Below are positions 29,700 to 46,290 of a DNA stretch of 64,000 nucleotides, in pieces. The notes below the pieces were generated by a model. That model saw nothing but the letters and a program-made list of their open reading frames with translations, was not told where the DNA came from and made no database searches. The position numbers and the translations under genes are program-made. This DNA is from Candidatus Saccharimonadales bacterium (GTDB lineage Bacteria > Patescibacteriota > Saccharimonadia > UBA4664 > SCTI01), in contig DATIII010000001.1 in NCBI GenBank assembly GCA_035479795.1, positions 7,087 through 71,086 of the forward strand. The letters run 5' to 3'. How positions within the stretch are numbered: the stretch's first letter is position 1; each line of letters begins with the position of its first letter.

Positions 29700-32438
29700 T
29701 TACAGCTCGCCCCAGTTTTTACCAATGGAGGTATCGGCCACTAGTGGCACGCCCAGATCATATACATTCTCCATGGTGTCTTTCAGTAGCTTAGTGACGC
29801 GGTCTGCATCCTTTTCGTCGGCCTCAAGAATCAACTGGTCGTGGACTTGCAACAGCATTTTGGCATTCGATCCTTCAAGTTTTTTAGCGACTTCAATCAT
29901 GGCTATTTTCATAATGTCGGCGGCCGTACCTTGAATTGGCACATTTACGGCAATCCTCTCTGTAGAATTGCGAATCACAAAGTTACTACTTTTTATCTCT
30001 GGGCAGGGCCGGCGGCGGCCCAGAAGAGTTTCGGTGTATTCATTTTCCCGAGCAAACTTCTTTACATTCTCAATATAGGCCCGCAGATCTTTGCGAACCT
30101 CAAAATAACGGTCAATAAAGCCGGTAGCCTCTTCGCGATTCATACCAGTTGCCACGCTCAAACCATGCGGACTCATGCCGTAGAGCACACCGAAATTAAT
30201 GGTTTTGGCGCTGTAACGCTGCTCCTTGGTAACCTCATTTAGCGGGACACCGAACATTTCGCTGGCGGTTTGTTGATGCAAGTCGATGCCTTTTTTGAAA
30301 GTCTCAATCATGCCCTGGTCTTTGCTCAGAGCCGCTGCCACCCGCAGCTCAATCTGTGAATAATCAGCGCTGACCAGCACTCGTCCTTTCGGCGCCACAA
30401 AGGCTTTGCGAATCTGCCGGCCAATCTCGGTGCGAACCGGAATGTTTTGCAGGTTCGGATTGGTCGAATTCAGTCGACCGGTCTGAGCAATGGTTTGGTT
30501 AAAACTCGTATGGACCCGAGAATTTTCATCGACATACTGCGGCAATGCCTCCACGTAGGTACTGCGCAGCTTGGTCAGCTCGCGGTATTCGCTAATCAAA
30601 TTGATGATTGGGTGAGCATCACGCAGCTTTTCGAGCTCGCTGGCGGCCGTCGAAAAACCGGTCTTACCCTTCTTCACCCCAACCTTTTGCAAATCCAGCT
30701 TTTCATACAGAATCTTGGCCAGCTGGGCCGGGCTGGAGATGTTAAACTCCTCGCCCGCCGCCTTCCAAATTTGCTGCTCTAGCTTCGCAATGTCCGTCGA
30801 AATGACTTCGTTAAACTTGCGTAAAAACTCTACATCCAGCTCGATCCCAGCAATCTCCATATTGCCGAGCACTTCAATCAGCGGCCATTCCGTGGCCTCG
30901 GCCAACTTATTAAAACCTGTCTCTGACATCTGTTTTTTAAGCGACTGGTAAAGGCGCCAGGCAATATCAGCGTCTTCAGCGGCGTAGGTTATGGCCTCCT
31001 CAATCGGCACACCGTCGAAAGTAATCTGTTTTTTGCCGACTCCCAGTAACTCCGTGATCGGAATCAGCTCAATCCCAAACTCCTTATAGGCCAGGTCATC
31101 CAGCGATTGACTGCGCCCAAGCGGATTAACAATAAAGGCGGCGATCATCGTATCAAAAATGATTGGACTAGGAGCGATCCCGTGCCGCACCAGCACCTTA
31201 TAATCAAACTTTGCATTATGACCTACTTTGCCGACCTTCGGATCTTCAAATACGGCTTTTAACGCTTGGCAGACTGCTTCTTTGCTCAGCTGCGTTCCCT
31301 CACGATGCCCCACGGGGATGTAAAAACCTTCCATTTCTTTCATACTGACGGAGATACCGACCAGGTTGGCACTCATTTCGTCGATGCTATCGGTTTCAGT
31401 ATCAAAGGCAAAGGCCTCGGCGGATTTAAGGCGCTTGACCAGATCGTCCAACTGGTTCTCGGTGGTAATGGCATGGTACTCGGCGCCTTCCAGATGCTTC
31501 CGCGAGCGCTTAGCAACCTCGCTGGCCTCTTCATCAGGCTTATCGAAGAGAGTCAGCGGACCGACCTCCATTTCCGGCGGCAATTTGGCCAACAAGGTCT
31601 TAAATTCCAATTTACGAAACAAATCATGAATCGCTTGGCGGTCAAATTTGCCAACCGTCGCGCCTTTTAGATCCAGCTCCACCGGAGCGTCACAAGCGAT
31701 TTCGGATAGTTTGTGGCTTAGATAAGCGATATCCTTGTTATCGCGCAATCGCTCCCCGAGCTTGCCGGGGATCTCGTCGACGCTTTCATATATACCCTCC
31801 AGACTGCCATATTGCTGGACTAGGCTGGTGGCAGTCTTTTCCCCGACGCCCTCCACGCCGGGAATATTGTCACTGGAATCGCCCATTAAGGCTTTGACAT
31901 CCACGAATTGCCGTGGCGTCACTCCATAGCGCTCGCGCAAAGCCTCCAGGTCGTAAATGACTGTGTCGGTAAAACCGCGCCGCATCGTATAAACCCGAGT
32001 GTTTTCATCGATTAACTGGAATTCGTCCTTATCACCGGTAACGATAATCGTCTCCAAGCCCTCTTTTTCGGCCTTGCGAGCCAGGGTACCGATAATGTCA
32101 TCAGCCTCATATTTATCCAGCTCAATCCACGGCAGACCGAGCGATTCGGTCACTTGGCGAGTATATGGAATCTGGGCATACAGATCATCCGGCTGCTTTT
32201 TGCGATGGGCTTTGTACTGCGGGTACATGTCCTTGCGGAAGGTGTCGCTGGACTTGTCCCAGGTAATAATGGTGTATTTGGGTTTGAGGTCGGCCAGTAC
32301 CTTGAGCAGCATCATGGTGAAACCATAGGTAGCATTGGTTGGAATACCTTCAGCCGTCGACAGCGGCGGGATCCCATGGTACCCGCGGTGAAACACCGCG
32401 CTGCCGTCTATTAGTACTAATCGTTCTCTTTTGGCCAT
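29700..32438 (-). CDS. polA: DNA polymerase I (5'-3' exonuclease, 3'-5' exonuclease and polymerase domains).
   Basis: 912 aa with PolA motifs (RRxxKxxNFGxxYG, QVHDEL). Confidence 0.95.
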   Translation of the reverse strand: MAKRERLVLIDGSAVFHRGYHGIPPLSTAEGIPTNATYGFTMMLLKVLADLKPKYTIITWDKSSDTFRKDMYPQYKAHRKKQPDDLYAQIPYTRQVTESLGLPWIELDKYEADDIIGTLARKAEKEGLETIIVTGDKDEFQLIDENTRVYTMRRGFTDTVIYDLEALRERYGVTPRQFVDVKALMGDSSDNIPGVEGVGEKTATSLVQQYGSLEGIYESVDEIPGKLGERLRDNKDIAYLSHKLSEIACDAPVELDLKGATVGKFDRQAIHDLFRKLEFKTLLAKLPPEMEVGPLTLFDKPDEEASEVAKRSRKHLEGAEYHAITTENQLDDLVKRLKSAEAFAFDTETDSIDEMSANLVGISVSMKEMEGFYIPVGHREGTQLSKEAVCQALKAVFEDPKVGKVGHNAKFDYKVLVRHGIAPSPIIFDTMIAAFIVNPLGRSQSLDDLAYKEFGIELIPITELLGVGKKQITFDGVPIEEAITYAAEDADIAWRLYQSLKKQMSETGFNKLAEATEWPLIEVLGNMEIAGIELDVEFLRKFNEVISTDIAKLEQQIWKAAGEEFNISSPAQLAKILYEKLDLQKVGVKKGKTGFSTAASELEKLRDAHPIINLISEYRELTKLRSTYVEALPQYVDENSRVHTSFNQTIAQTGRLNSTNPNLQNIPVRTEIGRQIRKAFVAPKGRVLVSADYSQIELRVAAALSKDQGMIETFKKGIDLHQQTASEMFGVPLNEVTKEQRYSAKTINFGVLYGMSPHGLSVATGMNREEATGFIDRYFEVRKDLRAYIENVKKFARENEYTETLLGRRRPCPEIKSSNFVIRNSTERIAVNVPIQGTAADIMKIAMIEVAKKLEGSNAKMLLQVHDQLILEADEKDADRVTKLLKDTMENVYDLGVPLVADTSIGKNWGEL

Positions 32439-32498: not shown

Positions 32499-33137
32499 AT
32501 GAAAGACGACATCAGCGAAGCATTGGGAATTGTCCTAGAAACCGTGTTTTCTGATATGCCGATTATCCTAGCCGCCTATGGCCCCAACGGTCTAATCAGT
32601 CTTTGGAGCAAAGGGGCCGAACTCATTACGGGCTACACTGCTGCGGAAATGATTAACAATCCGAAGGGGGCGGAACTGCTCTATCCAAATCCGCTCGAAA
32701 GAAACGAGGCCATCAAGCTCGCGAATGGCAGCGCTGGACGCATCTTTGAAATTCGCTGCAAAAATGGGAAGAGGAAAATGATTTCCTGGTACAACCCGAG
32801 GGATACGCTGCCCGAGCTTAGCCTCAAGCGTCTTATCCTGGGCATTGACGTGACCTCATACCAAACCACCATTTCAGGTATTCTAGAAGAAAAGAAGCGC
32901 CAAGCCATTGAAAATAATCGGCTGAGCGAGCTTTTGGATAAGCTACTCCAGCTAGATGCACATGAGGGCATCGACGGCAGCCGCTACAGCCGCCGCGAAG
33001 CCGACCGTATTGGCGGGGCCAGCCATCTGGGGCGCCGACAGGCCGACACCGAAGAAGACGATACCAGGCATGGTCGCCGTTGGTACGACCCACCTATTAA
33101 ACCCATAGCCAAGAAGAAGCCTCGACCAAAAAAATGA
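32499..33137 (+). CDS. PAS-domain protein, hypothetical sensor/regulator.
   Basis: PAS-like N-terminus (ILAAYGPNGLISLWSKGAELITGYTAAEMI). Basic C-terminus. Confidence 0.5.
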   Translation: MKDDISEALGIVLETVFSDMPIILAAYGPNGLISLWSKGAELITGYTAAEMINNPKGAELLYPNPLERNEAIKLANGSAGRIFEIRCKNGKRKMISWYNPRDTLPELSLKRLILGIDVTSYQTTISGILEEKKRQAIENNRLSELLDKLLQLDAHEGIDGSRYSRREADRIGGASHLGRRQADTEEDDTRHGRRWYDPPIKPIAKKKPRPKK

Positions 33138-33139
33138 AG

Positions 33140-33178
33140 GAACCCCGAGGGGCACGGGGCCCTTCGGGGTTTTGAAGT
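33140..33178. terminator. Bidirectional terminator between convergent genes (CCCCGAGGGGCACGGGGCCCTTCGGGGTTTTG; T7 run on the minus strand).
   Basis: Long GC palindrome with T-tracts on both strands. Confidence 0.6.
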
Positions 33179-33937
33179 TTAGGCGTGGTCGGTGGCATAC
33201 AGAACCACTGGATTGTCAGCCCGATTAGACTCGAGTCCATTATCCAGGAGCCCCCACAGGAACTTGGCGGTGCGCCTGAGAGCCGGCAGACCGAGATCGT
33301 TCACCACTATCACGTCGGGCCTAATATCGATTAGGCCAGCCTCGGTGGGGTTTTTCTTTACCTCTTTGCGGGGGTTGAAAACCTTGACGACGGCTCCACC
33401 GTGTTCGCGAATCAGGGCCGCATTGGATGGCATGCGAATACTGACACTGACGAAGTCGTGGCTCTCGACCGCGATACGCAGGTCCGGATCGAGGTAAAGG
33501 TCCCAGAAATCTTCGGCCACAAACTCGACGAGAAAGACCCCCAAGAACTCCAGCAGTTCACGATGCTCGGCCCGGTTAGCCATGGATATATTACGCGGGA
33601 ACTTGTCTTTTTTCAGATATCGCTCGAGCGCTGAAAGCCCGCCACTCTTGGCCATAGCTTCCTTGACTAATGCCTTAGTCAGCTTCCTACCGGAATTGTT
33701 GCTGACCAGTCGATTTAGCACTAGCGTCAAGGCATCGCCGATGTCATGAAAGCGCTTCATCGAGTAGCCAGATTGCGCAGACCAGTGAATGCCCCACTCA
33801 TTGGCGAGGGCAATCACGTAGGTGCTGTACTCCAGAGTGGTCGCCTTACCAGCCAGTTCTCCCAGCATATTGCCAAGAGTTGTCTTGCCATGGCCGCTGC
33901 CACCGGCCAAGCCGGCCAGCTTAACTGGGCTGCTCAT
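33179..33937 (-). CDS. P-loop NTPase / kinase-like protein (252 aa), family unassigned.
   Basis: Walker A (LAGLAGGSGHGKTTLG). ATG at 33937 preceded by AGGAG. The longer track ORF is rejected because its extension overlaps the upstream gene. GC-rich block. Confidence 0.55.
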   Translation of the reverse strand: MSSPVKLAGLAGGSGHGKTTLGNMLGELAGKATTLEYSTYVIALANEWGIHWSAQSGYSMKRFHDIGDALTLVLNRLVSNNSGRKLTKALVKEAMAKSGGLSALERYLKKDKFPRNISMANRAEHRELLEFLGVFLVEFVAEDFWDLYLDPDLRIAVESHDFVSVSIRMPSNAALIREHGGAVVKVFNPRKEVKKNPTEAGLIDIRPDVIVVNDLGLPALRRTAKFLWGLLDNGLESNRADNPVVLYATDHA

Positions 33938-34038
33938 TAGGAACTCCTGACCTCGAATTTTCAGGTGGTGATAGATTAGCGCAAACTTTGGCGAATTAAA
34001 AGCCCTGGAGGACATCCGTGTCCTCCAGGGAATTGGGC

Positions 34039-34512
34039 TTAAACCGCCCAGGCCGACTTCCAGCCGTGCTTCCACATCCACATCGCCGCCAGGGCCGCCC
34101 ACCTGGGTTGGTAGGGCGAATGGTGGCGATACGGCGTGTAGGCCCACGTGCGGGGCATGAACTGGTAGAGGCCGGCCGCGCCGGAGCTGGAGTTGGTAAC
34201 CCTCCAGTTGTAGCGCGACTCGCGGTGGGCGATGTAATACGCCTCGTAGCGGCTCTGGCCATAGTGACGGGCCGCCCGCGCAATAAAGCATCGGGCAATC
34301 CGCTCTCGGCTCGAAAGCCGCCAGCAGCTCGGTGTCCCCCGCTGGTAGCGGGTGCACAGCCGATTGGCGCAATGATCGGGCCAGCGAACCGTACGGTGCT
34401 GGCTATGGTTGGTGGCAGCCTGAGCCGGCTGCCCGGACGTTTCAGTCCGCCCGAAAGCGGGTGTGTTCAGCGCAAAGAAAAGCGCGAGAACTGTTGCGGT
34501 TGATCGTCGCAC
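34039..34512 (-). CDS. Small secreted lytic transglycosylase-like protein (SLT domain), 157 aa.
   Basis: Signal peptide (MRRSTATVLALFFALNTPAFG). SLT catalytic motif (E-S...GAAGLYQFMPRTW). GTG start preceded by AAGGAG. Confidence 0.55.
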   Translation of the reverse strand: MRRSTATVLALFFALNTPAFGRTETSGQPAQAATNHSQHRTVRWPDHCANRLCTRYQRGTPSCWRLSSRERIARCFIARAARHYGQSRYEAYYIAHRESRYNWRVTNSSSGAAGLYQFMPRTWAYTPYRHHSPYQPRWAALAAMWMWKHGWKSAWAV

Positions 34513-34795
34513 GGTGATTACTCCTTGATTTGAGGTTATCTCTTCAGGTGGTTCCTGTGCGGCAATCGCTCGTATCAGTCTCTCGCGGCCTCCGCTTCCG
34601 CCGGCTGGCGGCCAGCGGATTTGCGGCCGGGATAATTACAATCCGTACGAGATCTAACAGCGATCACCTAGTGCCGAATGATTATTCGGTCTATGGAGCA
34701 ACTTCAGGTGAAATAAATTCTCCTTGGTTGTGGACAATCTGTACTCATTTTAACAGCTGACCGAATTTGACTCAAGTTTAACAGGATTCGTAAAT

Positions 34796-35122
34796 TCAGG
34801 ATGCGGGATTCAAGTGCTCGTAATCATCAGGTTCGACGGTGTCTCCCTCTGGAATTGTTTTGTCACGAACGTCGTCTACGCGCCGGGCCTCCTCGGCCTC
34901 GATAATCGCCCGTCGCTCAGCTATATCTTCCCTGATCTCGGACAGTGGTCGACGAGACCCATCTCCCGCCTCATACTGCTGACTTCCCTTTTGATTAGGC
35001 ACAGAGTCGTATTTATCGGCCAACTCCTCCAAACTGCGTGCCTCTAAAGTCTCGGCCTCCTCTTTTTCTAAGCGGCCAAGCTTGGCTTCATTAGACATTG
35101 GCCCCGGTCCGGTTTCACTCAT
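34796..35122 (-). CDS. Acidic hypothetical protein (108 aa).
   Basis: AGGAGAG SD 6 nt upstream of the ATG. Lies 2 nt downstream of the kinase-like gene in the sigA operon region. Confidence 0.5.
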   Translation of the reverse strand: MSETGPGPMSNEAKLGRLEKEEAETLEARSLEELADKYDSVPNQKGSQQYEAGDGSRRPLSEIREDIAERRAIIEAEEARRVDDVRDKTIPEGDTVEPDDYEHLNPAS

Positions 35123-35123
35123 A

Positions 35124-35723
35124 TTACTCTCCTGTATAAAAACGTCTTAAATTTTCGGGATAATCGGTGGCCAGCGCCTTGGCGCACTCTTCGAATTGGT
35201 GTAAGGTGCCGGCGTTTTCAATGACCGTATCGGACATTTCAATTACTTTATCTACCTGGTGGCTGGGGCTGTTACGCTCGGCCTGCTCCTGGGCCGCAAA
35301 GGTCTCAAAATCGGTGGCATCGCCCGCACGCTTACGCGCTAGCACACGCTCGAACCGCACCTTTTGCGGGGCATCTACGGTGATAACAACTCCATTATGT
35401 ATTCGAACCACGCCTACCTCGGTGGCATGACGCATGCCTGGGTACAAAAGTAGATCAACCCCTTCCCCCGCCTTTGCAATGGCGGCCTCAATCCAATAGT
35501 TGCTGCCCTTTTCCTGGCGCACTGCCTCTGCCGCATGCTTGTCGACGCTACGATCGCCGGGATTACCCAAATGGTGCTCTTCCACATAGGCGCGAACCAG
35601 ATCACCAGGGGGCACAATGGCGCATTTTAAGCCCTTGGCAGTTAGGTATTTCGATAGTAGCTGGGCCAGCGTATCCTTACCTGCGCCCGGCTGACCAGTA
35701 ATCCCAATAATCGTCGGTTGCAT
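35124..35723 (-). CDS. P-loop nucleoside/nucleotide kinase-like protein (AAA_33-like).
   Basis: Walker A (IIGITGQPGAGKDTLAQ). ~200 aa. Confidence 0.6.
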   Translation of the reverse strand: MQPTIIGITGQPGAGKDTLAQLLSKYLTAKGLKCAIVPPGDLVRAYVEEHHLGNPGDRSVDKHAAEAVRQEKGSNYWIEAAIAKAGEGVDLLLYPGMRHATEVGVVRIHNGVVITVDAPQKVRFERVLARKRAGDATDFETFAAQEQAERNSPSHQVDKVIEMSDTVIENAGTLHQFEECAKALATDYPENLRRFYTGE

Positions 35724-39067: not shown

Positions 39068-39829
39068 CTAGAAAGGGAGTACGTCCAGTGACCGAGCCTT
39101 CTTGACGAACGGATTCTTGAACTTCACCACCATGTCTGGTGGCCGACGCTTCGGCCGCTCGAAGTACTTGAACCTGTCCGGCCAGGAGCGCAGATGAATC
39201 TCCGCCCTCGAAGTCCGGAAACAAACGACCACCAACCCCGCTGCTGGCACCAAGCCGTTTTCGAGCACGTAGGCGGTCTTGGCTTCCTTTTCGGCAGCGC
39301 TCAGGTTGAAGGCGTGGTTGAGATTGACTGCGTTAACCGTCTTGCTCTCCAAGCCGAATCCCAGATCCGTAACGAAGTCGATCGGATGGTGGTACGGGGT
39401 GCGCTCGATGATCTTGCCAAAGCGGCCCAGCCGCACCTGCCGCTCGATGATGTCCTCGCCGAGCAAGCCCATGGCCGTCAGGCTCAAGCCTGCGTGGGTG
39501 TAACCGCCAGGCGTCTGGGACTCAAAGCGTTCGGCTTCCTCACGGGGCGAGTGCGCATGCCCCTTAGAACAGACTGCGTAATCATCCTCCACCTCAGCCA
39601 ACGGAATTGGCACTCCGCAGGTTGGGTTGGGGCACTTTATGTGCCCGGCTGGGGCATTCCAGATCGAATCTCGGTTGACCCGAATCCTCGACCGCAAGCG
39701 CTTGGGGGTAGTCTGGACTGCGCGGCCACCTTCGATGACCTTCAGCGGTGTCCGCTTGATCCGCAGATGCTTGGCCGCCTCTAGGGCAGCCGACTCTTCC
39801 GCCGGAAGGCGGGCTGCCAGAGTGACCAT
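39068..39829 (-). CDS. PD-(D/E)XK nuclease-like protein with an N-terminal zinc ribbon (253 aa), unassigned family.
   Basis: CPNPTCGV...CSKGH zinc ribbon. Putative D...E-S-K motif (HPIDFVTDLGFGLESK). GC-rich block. Confidence 0.4.
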   Translation of the reverse strand: MVTLAARLPAEESAALEAAKHLRIKRTPLKVIEGGRAVQTTPKRLRSRIRVNRDSIWNAPAGHIKCPNPTCGVPIPLAEVEDDYAVCSKGHAHSPREEAERFESQTPGGYTHAGLSLTAMGLLGEDIIERQVRLGRFGKIIERTPYHHPIDFVTDLGFGLESKTVNAVNLNHAFNLSAAEKEAKTAYVLENGLVPAAGLVVVCFRTSRAEIHLRSWPDRFKYFERPKRRPPDMVVKFKNPFVKKARSLDVLPF

Positions 39830-45977: not shown

Positions 45978-46023
45978 CGGCGGATGTCCGATCCCTCCGG
46001 ATCAGTTTGAGAAGCCCTTTAAG

Positions 46024-46094
46024 CGGCGAGAGTGGGATTCGAACCCACGTCTCCGGCTTGTGGCCGGCATCTTGGTCCACTAGACGAGCCCGCC
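46024..46094 (-). tRNA. tRNA-like gene (71 nt), aberrant. Good acceptor and T-arm (GTGGGTTCGAATCCCAC), 3-4 bp D-stem, anticodon arm ambiguous (loop CCACAAG or 5-nt CACAA). Possible pseudogene or unusual tRNA.
   Basis: Manual fold. No U33. Anticodon cannot be assigned confidently. Confidence 0.4.
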
Positions 46095-46095
46095 A

Positions 46096-46169
46096 AGCGG
46101 CCCGAGGGACTCGAACCCTCGATCCTCCCGATTACGTGTCGGGTGCTCTACCAACTGAGCTAGGGCCGC
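46096..46169 (-). tRNA. tRNA-Thr (anticodon CGT as folded); no encoded CCA.
   Basis: Acceptor GCGGCCC/GGGCCGC. D-arm GCTCAGTTGGTAGAGC. Anticodon arm CCCGA-CACGTAA-TCGGG. T-arm GAGGGTTCGAGTCCCTC. Confidence 0.75.
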
Positions 46170-46185
46170 GCTGACTAAAAAGTAG

Positions 46186-46290
46186 CGGCTAGGGCGGGAT
46201 TCGAATCCACTTCGTGAGAAGACCCGCCAGAGTTGGACTGGCCCTCTCCGTCTTACGGGAGCGCTCTCCCACGTGAGCTACAGGCCCCAC
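46186..46290 (-). other. Chimeric tRNA-like sequence. It has a canonical tRNA 5' half (GGGGCCTGTAGCTCACGTGGGAGAGCGC), then a disrupted anticodon region, a GCCAG-TCCAACT-CTGGC hairpin, and a displaced T-arm/3'-end fragment (GGATTCGAATCCCGCC) that resembles the 3' end of the 46024-46094 element.
   Basis: Manual inspection. No consistent cloverleaf could be built. Confidence 0.3.

Follow-up and report, generated by a model that had tools for sequence, protein, structure and literature searches.

When a gene for a secreted, cell-wall-cleaving enzyme lies directly beside a P-loop kinase gene, do the two form one functional module or are they neighbours with separate histories? We assessed this at a locus within a 64,000-nt stretch of DNA from a MAG of a soil Saccharimonadales (TM7) bacterium (hereafter the window) whose flanking genes match GenBank records of RpoD (HSX41060.1) and PolA (HSX41055.1) labelled 'Candidatus Saccharimonadales bacterium', as expected for the episymbiont that a first-pass annotation of the letters alone had proposed. 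The block is flanked by sigA, dnaG and polA and consists of two co-oriented minus-strand genes, one for an SLT-type lytic transglycosylase and one for the P-loop protein (Table 1). Both carry the strong Shine-Dalgarno sequences described earlier, AAGGAG 8 nt before the GTG start of the SLT gene and AGGAG 7 nt before the ATG of the kinase gene, and the bidirectional terminator previously placed beside the block was recovered with folding energies of −22 kcal/mol for the minus transcript and −30.3 kcal/mol (z −4.4) for the plus transcript. The suspicion that the larger overlapping reading frames are artefacts was also correct: the SLT frame, which a 161-aa antisense frame (34018..34503) overlaps, matched 308 homologues bearing the Pfam SLT domain, and all kinase homologues begin at the same methionine, against a 397-aa reading in which the kinase frame is lengthened upstream. 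Between the two genes we found an intrinsic terminator hairpin of 12 bp with 8 GC pairs and a CUUUU tail (−24.8 kcal/mol, z −4.1), equalled in stability by 0 of 200 shuffles and present in a repeat scan as the perfect 12-nt inverted repeat I5. This hairpin and the structured leader of the SLT gene were both overlooked in the first reading. A consensus scan of the 100-nt gap between the SLT and kinase genes found no matching promoter.

Table 1 Features of the two-gene block, in window positions.
Feature	Position	Strand	Remarks
Bidirectional terminator	33140..33172	both	kinase gene (−) and convergent PAS-like ORF (+) end there
P-loop kinase gene, 252 aa, ATG start	33179..33937	−	T4 gp1 dNMP-kinase (DNMK) family, predicted; cytoplasmic
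Intrinsic terminator hairpin	34003..34030	−	just past SLT stop codon; between SLT and kinase genes
SLT gene, 157 aa, GTG start	34039..34512	−	mini lytic transglycosylase, secreted (predicted); predicted lysozyme fold resembling SLT/Rpf
Sec signal peptide (predicted), MRRSTATVLALFFALNTPAFG followed by RTE	34450..34512	−	read by eye from sequence
Structured 5' leader of lytic-enzyme cassette, ~235 nt	34513..34746	−	modelled core 34534-34702
Sigma-70-like promoter candidate, TTGAGT-17-TAAAAT with TG	34747..34775	−	consensus scan; would start leader transcript

The 157-aa protein passed the threshold of Pfam SLT (PF01464; 30.8 bits against a gathering cut-off of 21.3, E = 2.4e-7) in a partial alignment covering model positions 3-52 of 117, and matched a PHROG endolysin family (phrog_669, E = 1.5e-9); sequence E-values against the PDB were 0.02-0.05 only. 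It keeps 42 invariant columns, including C48/C53/C63/C75, R97-E98-S99, G114-L115-Q117-F118 and T122-W123, of which R97-E98-S99 and G114-L115-Y-Q117-F118 are unchanged across 37 homologues. Alignment of the catalytic motif between the family profile, phiKZ gp144 and Slt70 predicts Glu98 of the R-E-S motif (codon 34221-34219) as the catalytic residue. The AF2 model has a core pLDDT of ~90 (71 for the whole model), and its top Foldseek matches were all lytic transglycosylases (MltF, MltE, Slt and the phi6 lysin), with probabilities up to 0.98 and an rmsd of ~2 Å over 75-82 residues, but E-values of 0.65 or worse.

Like the family-1 lytic transglycosylases Slt70 and MltE of E. coli, MltF of P. aeruginosa and phiKZ gp144, the protein carries Glu-Ser and then G-L-x-Q-F...T-W, and MltF/MltE/Slt are the nearest structures to its model at the E-values given above. 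It is, however, much smaller, with a core of ~110 residues, four conserved cysteines predicted to form two disulfides and a W-rich C-terminal helix, and the third family-1 motif, A-Y-N-x-G, was not found after T122-W123 in the homologue alignment. It also resembles the actinobacterial Rpf proteins (PF06737; M. tuberculosis RpfB/C/E) in being a small secreted protein with a lysozyme/SLT-hybrid muralytic domain, and true Rpf-domain genes occupy the same slot in relatives, but it lacks the C-E-S-G-G-N motif, scores 23.3 bits against PF06737 (cut-off 27 bits) and is part of a distinct family whose native lineage is Solirubrobacterales. A weak c-type-lysozyme-like motif was also noted. The signal peptide, which was judged directly from the sequence without a predictor, has no lipobox, and the N-terminus is unlike the longer MRSTRRAA...-type leader of actinobacterial homologues. 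These features agree with the earlier call of a secreted family-1 enzyme and indicate a putative, secreted-looking family-1-type lytic transglycosylase or Rpf-like muramidase, whose SLT domain is, by alignment, a shortened, Rpf-sized version. The GenBank annotation omits the gene.

We found that the SLT gene differs strongly in composition from its surroundings, with GC of 0.650 and GC3 of 0.772 against 0.532 ± 0.028 and 0.591 ± 0.048 across 50 window ORFs (~+4 SD), while the kinase gene (GC 0.555, GC3 0.660) lies at ~+1 SD, such that the earlier description of both genes as GC-rich holds strongly for the SLT gene only (65% against 53% GC), which is foreign in composition, the kinase being mildly raised. 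The closest SLT relatives (up to 86% identity) all come from Solirubrobacterales-type Actinobacteria, the database matches bearing names are Thermoleophilaceae or Solirubrobacteraceae, and the only GTDB species-representative genomes matched were three Solirubrobacteraceae and one Actinomycetota. For the close homologues whose DNA was examined (ten loci, 71-83% identity), every contig has 67-73% GC and gene GC3 is 0.87-1.0, and those contigs that bear a name are Solirubrobacteraceae; an 82% identical homologue (P0009), for example, has TetR, acyl-CoA dehydrogenase and peptidase genes as neighbours on a contig of 71% GC. Neighbours at the actinobacterial SLT loci were pentapeptide-repeat and SGNH-like proteins, with no kinase, on which ground we rejected a joint transfer of kinase and SLT gene. 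The distribution and composition of these homologues show the SLT family to be native to high-GC Solirubrobacterales-type Actinobacteria and the window copy to be intermediate in composition. Relative to actinobacterial orthologues, dN/dS was 0.10-0.16 (dS ~1), indicating that the gene has been kept intact by selection. We infer that it moved from Actinobacteria into the Saccharimonadales lineage, was then ameliorated in part and has remained under purifying selection. The neighbour-joining tree of 125 homologues (112 columns) does not separate one acquisition from several, with backbone bootstraps of 0-18% and the window and L005 copies grouping in ~10% of replicates.

Upstream of the SLT gene, the leader folds with a minimum free energy of −84.4 kcal/mol (z −5.7), and blocks of it are conserved in the window and the related loci L006 and L014 despite their differing downstream lytic transglycosylase genes. 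RNAalifold on three leader sequences from related genomes gave 29 pairs, eight with compensatory changes, and paired cells made up 89.7% of the alignment against 33-44% in slid controls. The promoter candidate is weak when taken alone (two sites in the scan against 1.1 expected in shuffles). In the predicted structure, GUUGCUCC (34702-34695) forms the closing helix with GGAGUAAU, the Shine-Dalgarno region of the SLT gene; as modelled, this helix can sequester the ribosome-binding site, which would place the SLT gene under conditional, translational control. Structured RNA leaders precede rpf genes in Actinobacteria, namely the c-di-AMP ydaO riboswitch before rpfA and, in M. tuberculosis, an RNA switch upstream of rpfB. 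The window leader resembles these in being long, structured and 5' of a secreted muralytic gene, with a ribosome-binding site able to pair in. It differs from them in having no match in Rfam 15, ydaO included (E ≤ 5, positions 33900-34900, both strands), on which ground we rejected a known riboswitch, and a covariance-model search of the window and 30 other loci, actinobacterial SLT loci among them, returned no further copies. The single weak match, at L024 (E 0.02-0.13), lies within coding sequence and probably arose by chance.

For the kinase, the 252-aa protein alone scored 19.9 bits against Pfam DNMK (PF21448), under the 27.1 cut-off, and matched the PHROG dNMP kinase family (phrog_139, E = 6.2e-8). 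DNMK was matched by 49 of the 51 aligned family members at E ≤ 0.01 (best 2.2e-12), and the family profile matched PDB 1DEK (E = 7.5e-12) over profile positions 126-232. The AF2 model (pLDDT 93.1, pTM 0.89) had 1DEK_A as its top Foldseek match (E = 9.7e-7, TM 0.63-0.65); CoaE structures came next (E = 2.6e-3 or worse, TM 0.4-0.5), and we rejected CoaE as an identity because it scored weakly, and after DNMK, both in that search and with other members of the family. The Walker A motif GGSGHGKTT (33878-33904) and the residues invariant across 51 sequences (G12, G17, K18, E36, R168 and E199) are kept, and the protein has no signal peptide. Judged by family profile and structural model, it is a divergent dNMP kinase of the T4 gp1 type, comparable to T4 gp1 (1DEK/1DEL) in length (252 vs 241 aa), N-terminal Walker A and an alignable C-terminal half, but only 14-17% identical to it and from a cellular (Saccharibacteria) rather than a phage lineage. 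Both the SLT protein and the kinase are further members of known families. GenBank carries the kinase in a form over-extended to 322 aa.

Records of the wider kinase family bear the name Candidatus Saccharibacteria, with contigs reaching 1 Mb, and the family is common there amid genes of dNTP metabolism: other copies follow secE-nusG-rplK-rplA, have DCD and Tmk-ThyX nearby, or lie close to ThyA and dCMP deaminase. The window kinase is ~25% identical to these canonical proteins, and the secE-nusG-rplK-rplA region, where a second, canonical copy might lie, falls outside the 64-kb window. Such neighbourhoods come close to the housekeeping match (CoaE or Udk) that the first-pass annotation had set against its own reading.

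Among relatives, polA comes immediately after the kinase gene in the same orientation, and it is the real partner of the kinase. The order is Rpf, SLT, kinase and polA at L005/L006 and Rpf, Rpf, kinase and polA at L014, with the kinase beside an SLT of another type at L015; the Rpf genes of L005 and L014 pass PF06737 at 67-86 bits (RpfE, E = 2.4e-19). The guess that an upstream fragment at L032 encodes a kin199-type kinase received no support from BLASTP or Pfam. Kinase identity to relatives was 51% and 36% where PolA identity was 78% and 73%, a rate two to three times that of the neighbours, and kinase GC3 in relatives was 0.75-0.83 against 0.63-0.65 for polA; a plain housekeeping role leaves this raised GC3 unexplained.

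Taken together, we favour, with confidence only a little above even, a reading in which the two genes are separately terminated neighbours, an acquired, host-directed SLT and a dNMP kinase paired with polA. A functional link between them is also conceivable, as a lytic cassette adjoins the kinase in all four known members of the kinase clade. Such a link could be an effector or toxin pair of a zeta-toxin-like UNAG kinase and a wall hydrolase, as first proposed, or a salvage pair phosphorylating wall-derived amino sugars or muropeptides, and the fast evolution of the kinase, its ~25% identity only to canonical proteins and the raised GC3 that it shares with the lytic genes in relatives would fit either. 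We nevertheless consider a single module improbable. All four genomes are closely related, with PolA 70-78% identical, such that synteny is expected from descent alone; donor-type actinobacterial SLT loci have no such kinase; and with a strong terminator between the genes, a module is not shown. The kinase lacks a signal peptide, keeps the DNMK-like invariants and has a dNMP kinase as its best match in both sequence and fold. It does recall the Zeta/PezT toxins (PF06414) as a P-loop kinase of similar size near a cell-wall gene, but it has no antitoxin-like partner and its fold is closest to that of dNMP kinase, with CoaE second; Zeta_toxin, AAA_33 and Udk (PRK) had no Pfam match at E ≤ 1, and PADLOC returned no defence system. 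We read the pairing as a neighbourhood and not as a toxin/effector module, and the proposed zeta-toxin or UNAG-kinase-like identity falls away. A phage derivation, the other origin first suggested, fared no better: although both domains are known in phages (the phrog_669 and phrog_139 matches), we regard a prophage or mobile-element remnant, with an endolysin-type transglycosylase and a phage dNMP kinase, as very unlikely, because tblastn of both proteins against 50,697 phage genomes gave no match, IMG/VR contained no kinase relative and for the SLT only short 40-65% matches to the transglycosylase motif, and no plasmid matched. Flanking repeats, integrase and phage genes are absent around the block and the only repeats present are short chance ones, the flanks are sigA, dnaG and polA, and SLT relatives occupy ordinary chromosomal contexts. 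Least probable of all is a mis-joined actinobacterial fragment in a Saccharimonadales contig. The GC of the SLT gene above that of its flanks and a MAG contig of GCA_964594805.1 that stops 35 bp past the gene would be consistent with an assembly or binning error, but the same junctions on both sides recur in independent assemblies (two NCBI MAGs and three separate SRA runs), SLT GC3 (0.77) is below that of the actinobacterial genes, the N-terminal signal peptide is remodelled, and the syntenic copies of relatives stand behind the same conserved leader.

The most serious competitor, less probable than the favoured reading yet far from negligible, holds that the SLT is a housekeeping autolysin for the cell's own wall, acting in division or in the insertion of type IV pili or type IV secretion systems, and that its actinobacterial origin is incidental. 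Small SLT/Rpf proteins reshape the producer's own wall in Actinobacteria, and Saccharibacteria, which possess peptidoglycan, also build envelope-spanning machines for which space-making enzymes are needed. Purifying selection on the SLT gene is compatible with either role, and the Rpf KOs reported as enriched in oral Patescibacteria come without a demonstrated host-directed role (10.1101/2025.03.10.642329). Against the autolysin stands the content of the slot, which is swapped among close relatives (SLT, a different SLT, Rpf and SLT, or two Rpf genes) while PolA stays 73-78% identical, a pattern that one would sooner expect of an interaction locus than of an enzyme whose self substrate does not change. 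The donor lineage also lies within the phylum Actinobacteria, in which, to our knowledge, all cultured Saccharibacteria have their hosts.

Under the favoured reading, a small, single-domain, Sec-exported SLT would be made behind a lineage-conserved promoter and the ~235-nt structured leader. Action on host peptidoglycan is plausible, and the most likely job of the enzyme would be to cleave glycan strands of an actinobacterial host's wall at the attachment site, which would ease access to host material; an enzyme acquired from the host lineage would already suit the wall chemistry of the host. The kinase would turn salvaged dNMPs into dNDPs for DNA synthesis. A bolder extension, which we hold as tentative and rather doubtful, is that the lineage keeps a slot dedicated to expression, placed after the sigA operon and before kinase-polA. 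There, a promoter would be followed by an undescribed, riboswitch-like leader that gates the ribosome-binding site, muralytic genes captured from hosts among the Actinobacteria (Solirubrobacterales-type SLT or Rpf) would replace one another time and again, and the adjacent fast-evolving DNMK-like kinase may have been recruited to process the products of the enzyme. If true, the slot cassette would serve as a weapon that opens the host wall and would at the same time record host range in the genome.

These results correct the public annotation, adding the missing SLT gene and shortening the 322-aa kinase, and remove a tempting 'toxin kinase' reading as unsupported. Confirmation in more genomes would make the leader a new cis-regulatory RNA of Patescibacteria, a group with very few known to us. 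Lytic transglycosylases have been proposed, without demonstration, to serve the epibiotic lifestyle (PMC11665869), and the SLT described here is a candidate tool of that lifestyle. Its origin, taken alone, would point to Solirubrobacterales as host of the lineage. For the hosts of soil Saccharimonadales, an enzyme whose nearest relatives are all Solirubrobacterales-type gives a concrete, testable clue.

The lytic transglycosylase (SLT) gene was compositionally foreign in the window, with a GC of 0.650 and a GC3 of 0.772 compared to means of 0.532 ± 0.028 and 0.591 ± 0.048 across 50 window ORFs, in line with the elevated GC described in the first-pass annotation. The closest proteins were 79–86% identical across the mature domain, and all that carry names belong to Thermoleophilaceae or Solirubrobacteraceae. 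Among GTDB genomes, scanned at one per species, SLT loci turned up in only three Solirubrobacteraceae and one Actinomycetota, and a scan of JGI metagenomes added 7 further close loci. Flanks were 67–73% GC and the gene's GC3 0.87–1.0 in all close loci with DNA examined (10/10); an 82% identical homologue (P0009), on a contig of 71% GC, had genes for TetR, acyl-CoA dehydrogenase and peptidase around it. Since the composition is native in these Solirubrobacterales-type Actinobacteria and intermediate here, we infer that the gene was transferred from Actinobacteria to Saccharimonadales. Such a transfer is not very recent, judging from dS of ~0.9–1.2 to two actinobacterial orthologues (L016 and L013), and purifying selection acts on the gene (dN/dS 0.10–0.16). 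The window copy and the syntenic one in relative L005 were 73% identical and both nearer to actinobacterial sequences than to each other, with a neighbor-joining tree too poorly resolved to separate one acquisition from two. Relatives in phages, IMG/VR and plasmids did not extend past short motif matches, which lends no support to the phage-derived module suggested earlier.

A second MAG (GCA_964594805.1), together with 3 SRA-run assemblies, contained this locus with the same junctions, which argues against a chimera. The second MAG's contig (CAZQMU010000007.1, 53 kb) ends 35 bp past the SLT gene, at a terminator hairpin and GC step, which suggests that this spot is hard to assemble. Exact look-up matched the window's RpoD and PolA to HSX41060.1 and HSX41055.1 of ‘Candidatus Saccharimonadales bacterium’. 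The GenBank call for the neighboring kinase (HSX41057.1, VLF21_00225; 322 aa) is over-extended into the SLT gene, which is itself absent from that annotation, where the acidic protein follows as HSX41058.1. Elsewhere in the window, another compositional outlier (GC 0.61, GC3 0.75) encodes a hypothetical protein of 253 aa (HSX41062.1) that matched no Pfam family; other gene callers divide this stretch otherwise in the second MAG's gene list. ARAGORN also called a tRNA-Cys with an unusual ACA anticodon (Rfam tRNA score just 42.9 bits) beside a tRNA-like element with no assigned anticodon and no entry in the Rfam list.

Coordinates of features in the window and in loci of related genomes
Feature	Sequence	Position	Strand	Details
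SLT-type ORF, 157 aa	window	34512..34039	-	GTG start; AAGGAG 8 nt upstream
P-loop kinase ORF, 252 aa	window	33937..33179	-	ATG start; AGGAG 7 nt upstream; Walker A GGSGHGKTT
Hairpin terminator between SLT gene and kinase	window	34030-34003	-	12 bp; -24.8 kcal/mol; z -4.1
Bidirectional terminator	window	~33140-33172	both	terminator scan and folding
Leader region	window	34513-34775	-	conserved, strongly folding, precedes lytic cassette
Leader region	L006	842-1106		as above
Leader region	L014	2911-3181		as above
Sigma-70-like site, putative leader transcript start	window	34775-34747	-	consensus scan
AAA_18-type kinase, 199 aa	window	35124-35723	-	sigA operon
PAS-like ORF, 212 aa	window	32499..33137	+	convergent
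polA	window	32438..29700	-	
Kinase	L005	1180-1938		
Kinase	L015	363-1136		
Kinase	L014	4477-5238		
Rpf-domain gene	L005	28-630		PF06737
Rpf-domain genes	L014	3182-3757, 3772-4266		PF06737
HSX41062.1	window	39068-39829	-	
tRNA-Cys	window	within 46023-46288	-	ARAGORN
tRNA-like element	window	46218-46288		ARAGORN

The encoded protein passed the Pfam SLT cut-off (30.8 vs. 21.3 bits) and retained the E-S, GLxQF and TW motifs, bearing out the earlier family-1 assignment, although the match spans only positions 3–52 of 117 and the third family-1 motif is absent. All 42 invariant positions of a 37-sequence alignment are kept, including four cysteines, R97-E98-S99, G114-L115-x-Q117-F118 and T122-W123. 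The Rpf-type profile PF06737 scored slightly under its cut-off, PHROG matches were endolysin and transglycosylase families, and phiKZ gp144 and Slt70 aligned with the family profile at their catalytic motif (E 0.02–0.03). The AF2 model (core pLDDT ~90) had only lytic transglycosylases among its best fold matches, with weak E-values. The protein belongs to the lysozyme-like/SLT kind in a shortened form of Rpf size, and is probably exported by Sec, as its N-terminus (MRRSTATVLALFFALNTPAFG followed by RTE) reads by eye as a signal peptide, unlike the longer leader of its actinobacterial homologues.

The two genes are preceded on their own strand by dnaG, sigA, the 199-aa kinase and an acidic 108-aa ORF, and have the PAS-like ORF and polA downstream. 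Both co-oriented genes with strong Shine-Dalgarno sequences, the GTG start and the bidirectional terminator were recovered as previously described. A 161-aa antisense ORF was rejected as an artefact of the GC-rich stretch, again as previously judged, with 308 homologues backing the SLT frame instead; so was a 397-aa extension of the kinase frame, every kinase homologue beginning at the same methionine. The convergent PAS-like ORF (E 3e-4, below cut-off) has a basic, low-complexity tail; missing from L005 and L014, it is an insertion between kinase and polA in the window.

Gene order in relatives showed that the lytic cassette varies behind a conserved leader. L005 and L006, which share an arrangement, carry the 199-aa kinase, an acidic ORF, an Rpf-domain gene, an SLT gene sharing 73% identity with that of the window, the kinase and polA; L014 carries an acidic ORF, two Rpf-domain genes, kinase and polA; and in L015 a different SLT-like gene (39% identical) precedes the kinase. 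These Rpf genes are genuine (PF06737 67–86 bits; M. tuberculosis RpfE E 2.4e-19) and of the actinobacterial resuscitation-promoting factor type; that of L005 has a GC of 0.65 compared to 0.53 for polA. The ~280-nt spacer before the cassette showed block conservation across the window, L006 and L014 despite the differing downstream genes. Its consensus structure has 29 pairs, 8 with compensatory changes, and 89.7% of leader cells were paired compared to 33–44% in slid controls; the two inner hairpins differ in sequence in each of the three genomes. Folding of the leader in the window gave -84.4 kcal/mol (z -5.7), and in the predicted closing helix GUUGCUCC (34702-34695) is paired to the Shine-Dalgarno region of the SLT gene, GGAGUAAU, such that the leader may gate SLT translation. 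No Rfam family matched at E ≤ 5, and searching with a covariance model turned up no further copy, whether in the window, among the actinobacterial loci or in other Saccharibacteria loci. With only three related sequences, the leader is a candidate new cis-regulatory RNA rather than an established class.

The kinase belongs to the T4 gp1-type dNMP kinase family (DNMK). As a single sequence it matched phrog_139 ‘dNMP kinase’ (E 6.2e-8) and scored under the Pfam DNMK cut-off (19.9 vs. 27.1 bits), whereas 49 of 51 aligned family members matched DNMK and the family profile matched T4 gp1 (1DEK; E 7.5e-12). Its AF2 model (pLDDT 93.1, pTM 0.89) had 1DEK as top fold match (E 9.7e-7, TM 0.63–0.65), ahead of dephospho-CoA kinases. 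The zeta-toxin or UNAG-kinase-like identity suggested by the first-pass annotation did not hold: Pfam searches gave no match to Zeta_toxin, AAA_33 or Udk, and PADLOC returned nothing. The 199-aa kinase is a second small P-loop nucleotide-kinase-like gene (PRK08356-like), weakly matching the DNMK-like family profile (E 2.7e-12). Only three close homologues of the window kinase occurred in 5.8 billion clustered proteins, forming with it a clade of four (58% identity for P0002, in L015; 51% for P0003, in L005/L006; 32–36% for P0124, in L014), and exhaustive profile searching found 293 relatives, mostly 245–260 aa. The wider family, ~25% identical and on contigs up to 1 Mb, had ‘Candidatus Saccharibacteria’ as its only named members. 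In 2 unrelated genomes it follows secE-nusG-rplK-rplA and lies close to dCTP deaminase and Tmk-ThyX, or ThyA and dCMP deaminase, a housekeeping dNTP-metabolism setting. This setting fits the lifestyle of organisms that cannot make nucleotides and depend on salvage (PMC11665869), where the kinase would supply DNA synthesis by phosphorylating salvaged dNMPs.

A match to a housekeeping kinase had been named as what would refute the earlier reading, and the result comes close to it, with no Udk match but a dNMP kinase family in housekeeping neighborhoods in other Saccharibacteria. In relatives the kinase is linked to polA, ~80 nt apart on the same strand in L005 and L014. A plain housekeeping role accounts for neither its fast evolution nor its raised GC3: between these genomes, identity was 78% and 73% for PolA, 77% for the 199-aa kinase (to its L006 counterpart) and just 51% and 36% for the kinase itself, a divergence two to three times that of PolA, and in the relatives GC3 was 0.75–0.83 for the kinase and 0.70–0.83 for the entire lytic-gene-plus-kinase stretch, compared to 0.63–0.65 for polA. 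The lytic cassette and the kinase are neighbors in all four members of the clade; because these genomes are close relatives, conserved adjacency by itself does not establish a functional link. A strong hairpin terminator separates the genes, no such kinase adjoins SLT in the donor-type actinobacterial loci, and the toxin/effector pairing proposed earlier is not supported. There is a small chance that salvage links them.

For the enzyme itself, we give roughly even chances that it acts on the wall of an actinobacterial host, and consider a self-directed autolysin a distinctly less probable reading. Lytic transglycosylases of Patescibacteria have been published before, as has the proposal that they act against host envelopes (PMC11665869), and Rpf KOs are reported to be enriched in oral Patescibacteria (10.1101/2025.03.10.642329); our full-text literature search found no paper that ties Saccharibacteria to Solirubrobacterales via gene transfer or describes Rpf-type cassettes such as these. 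Both genes belong to known kinds, and what lends the locus interest is the clue to host lineage together with the candidate leader RNA.
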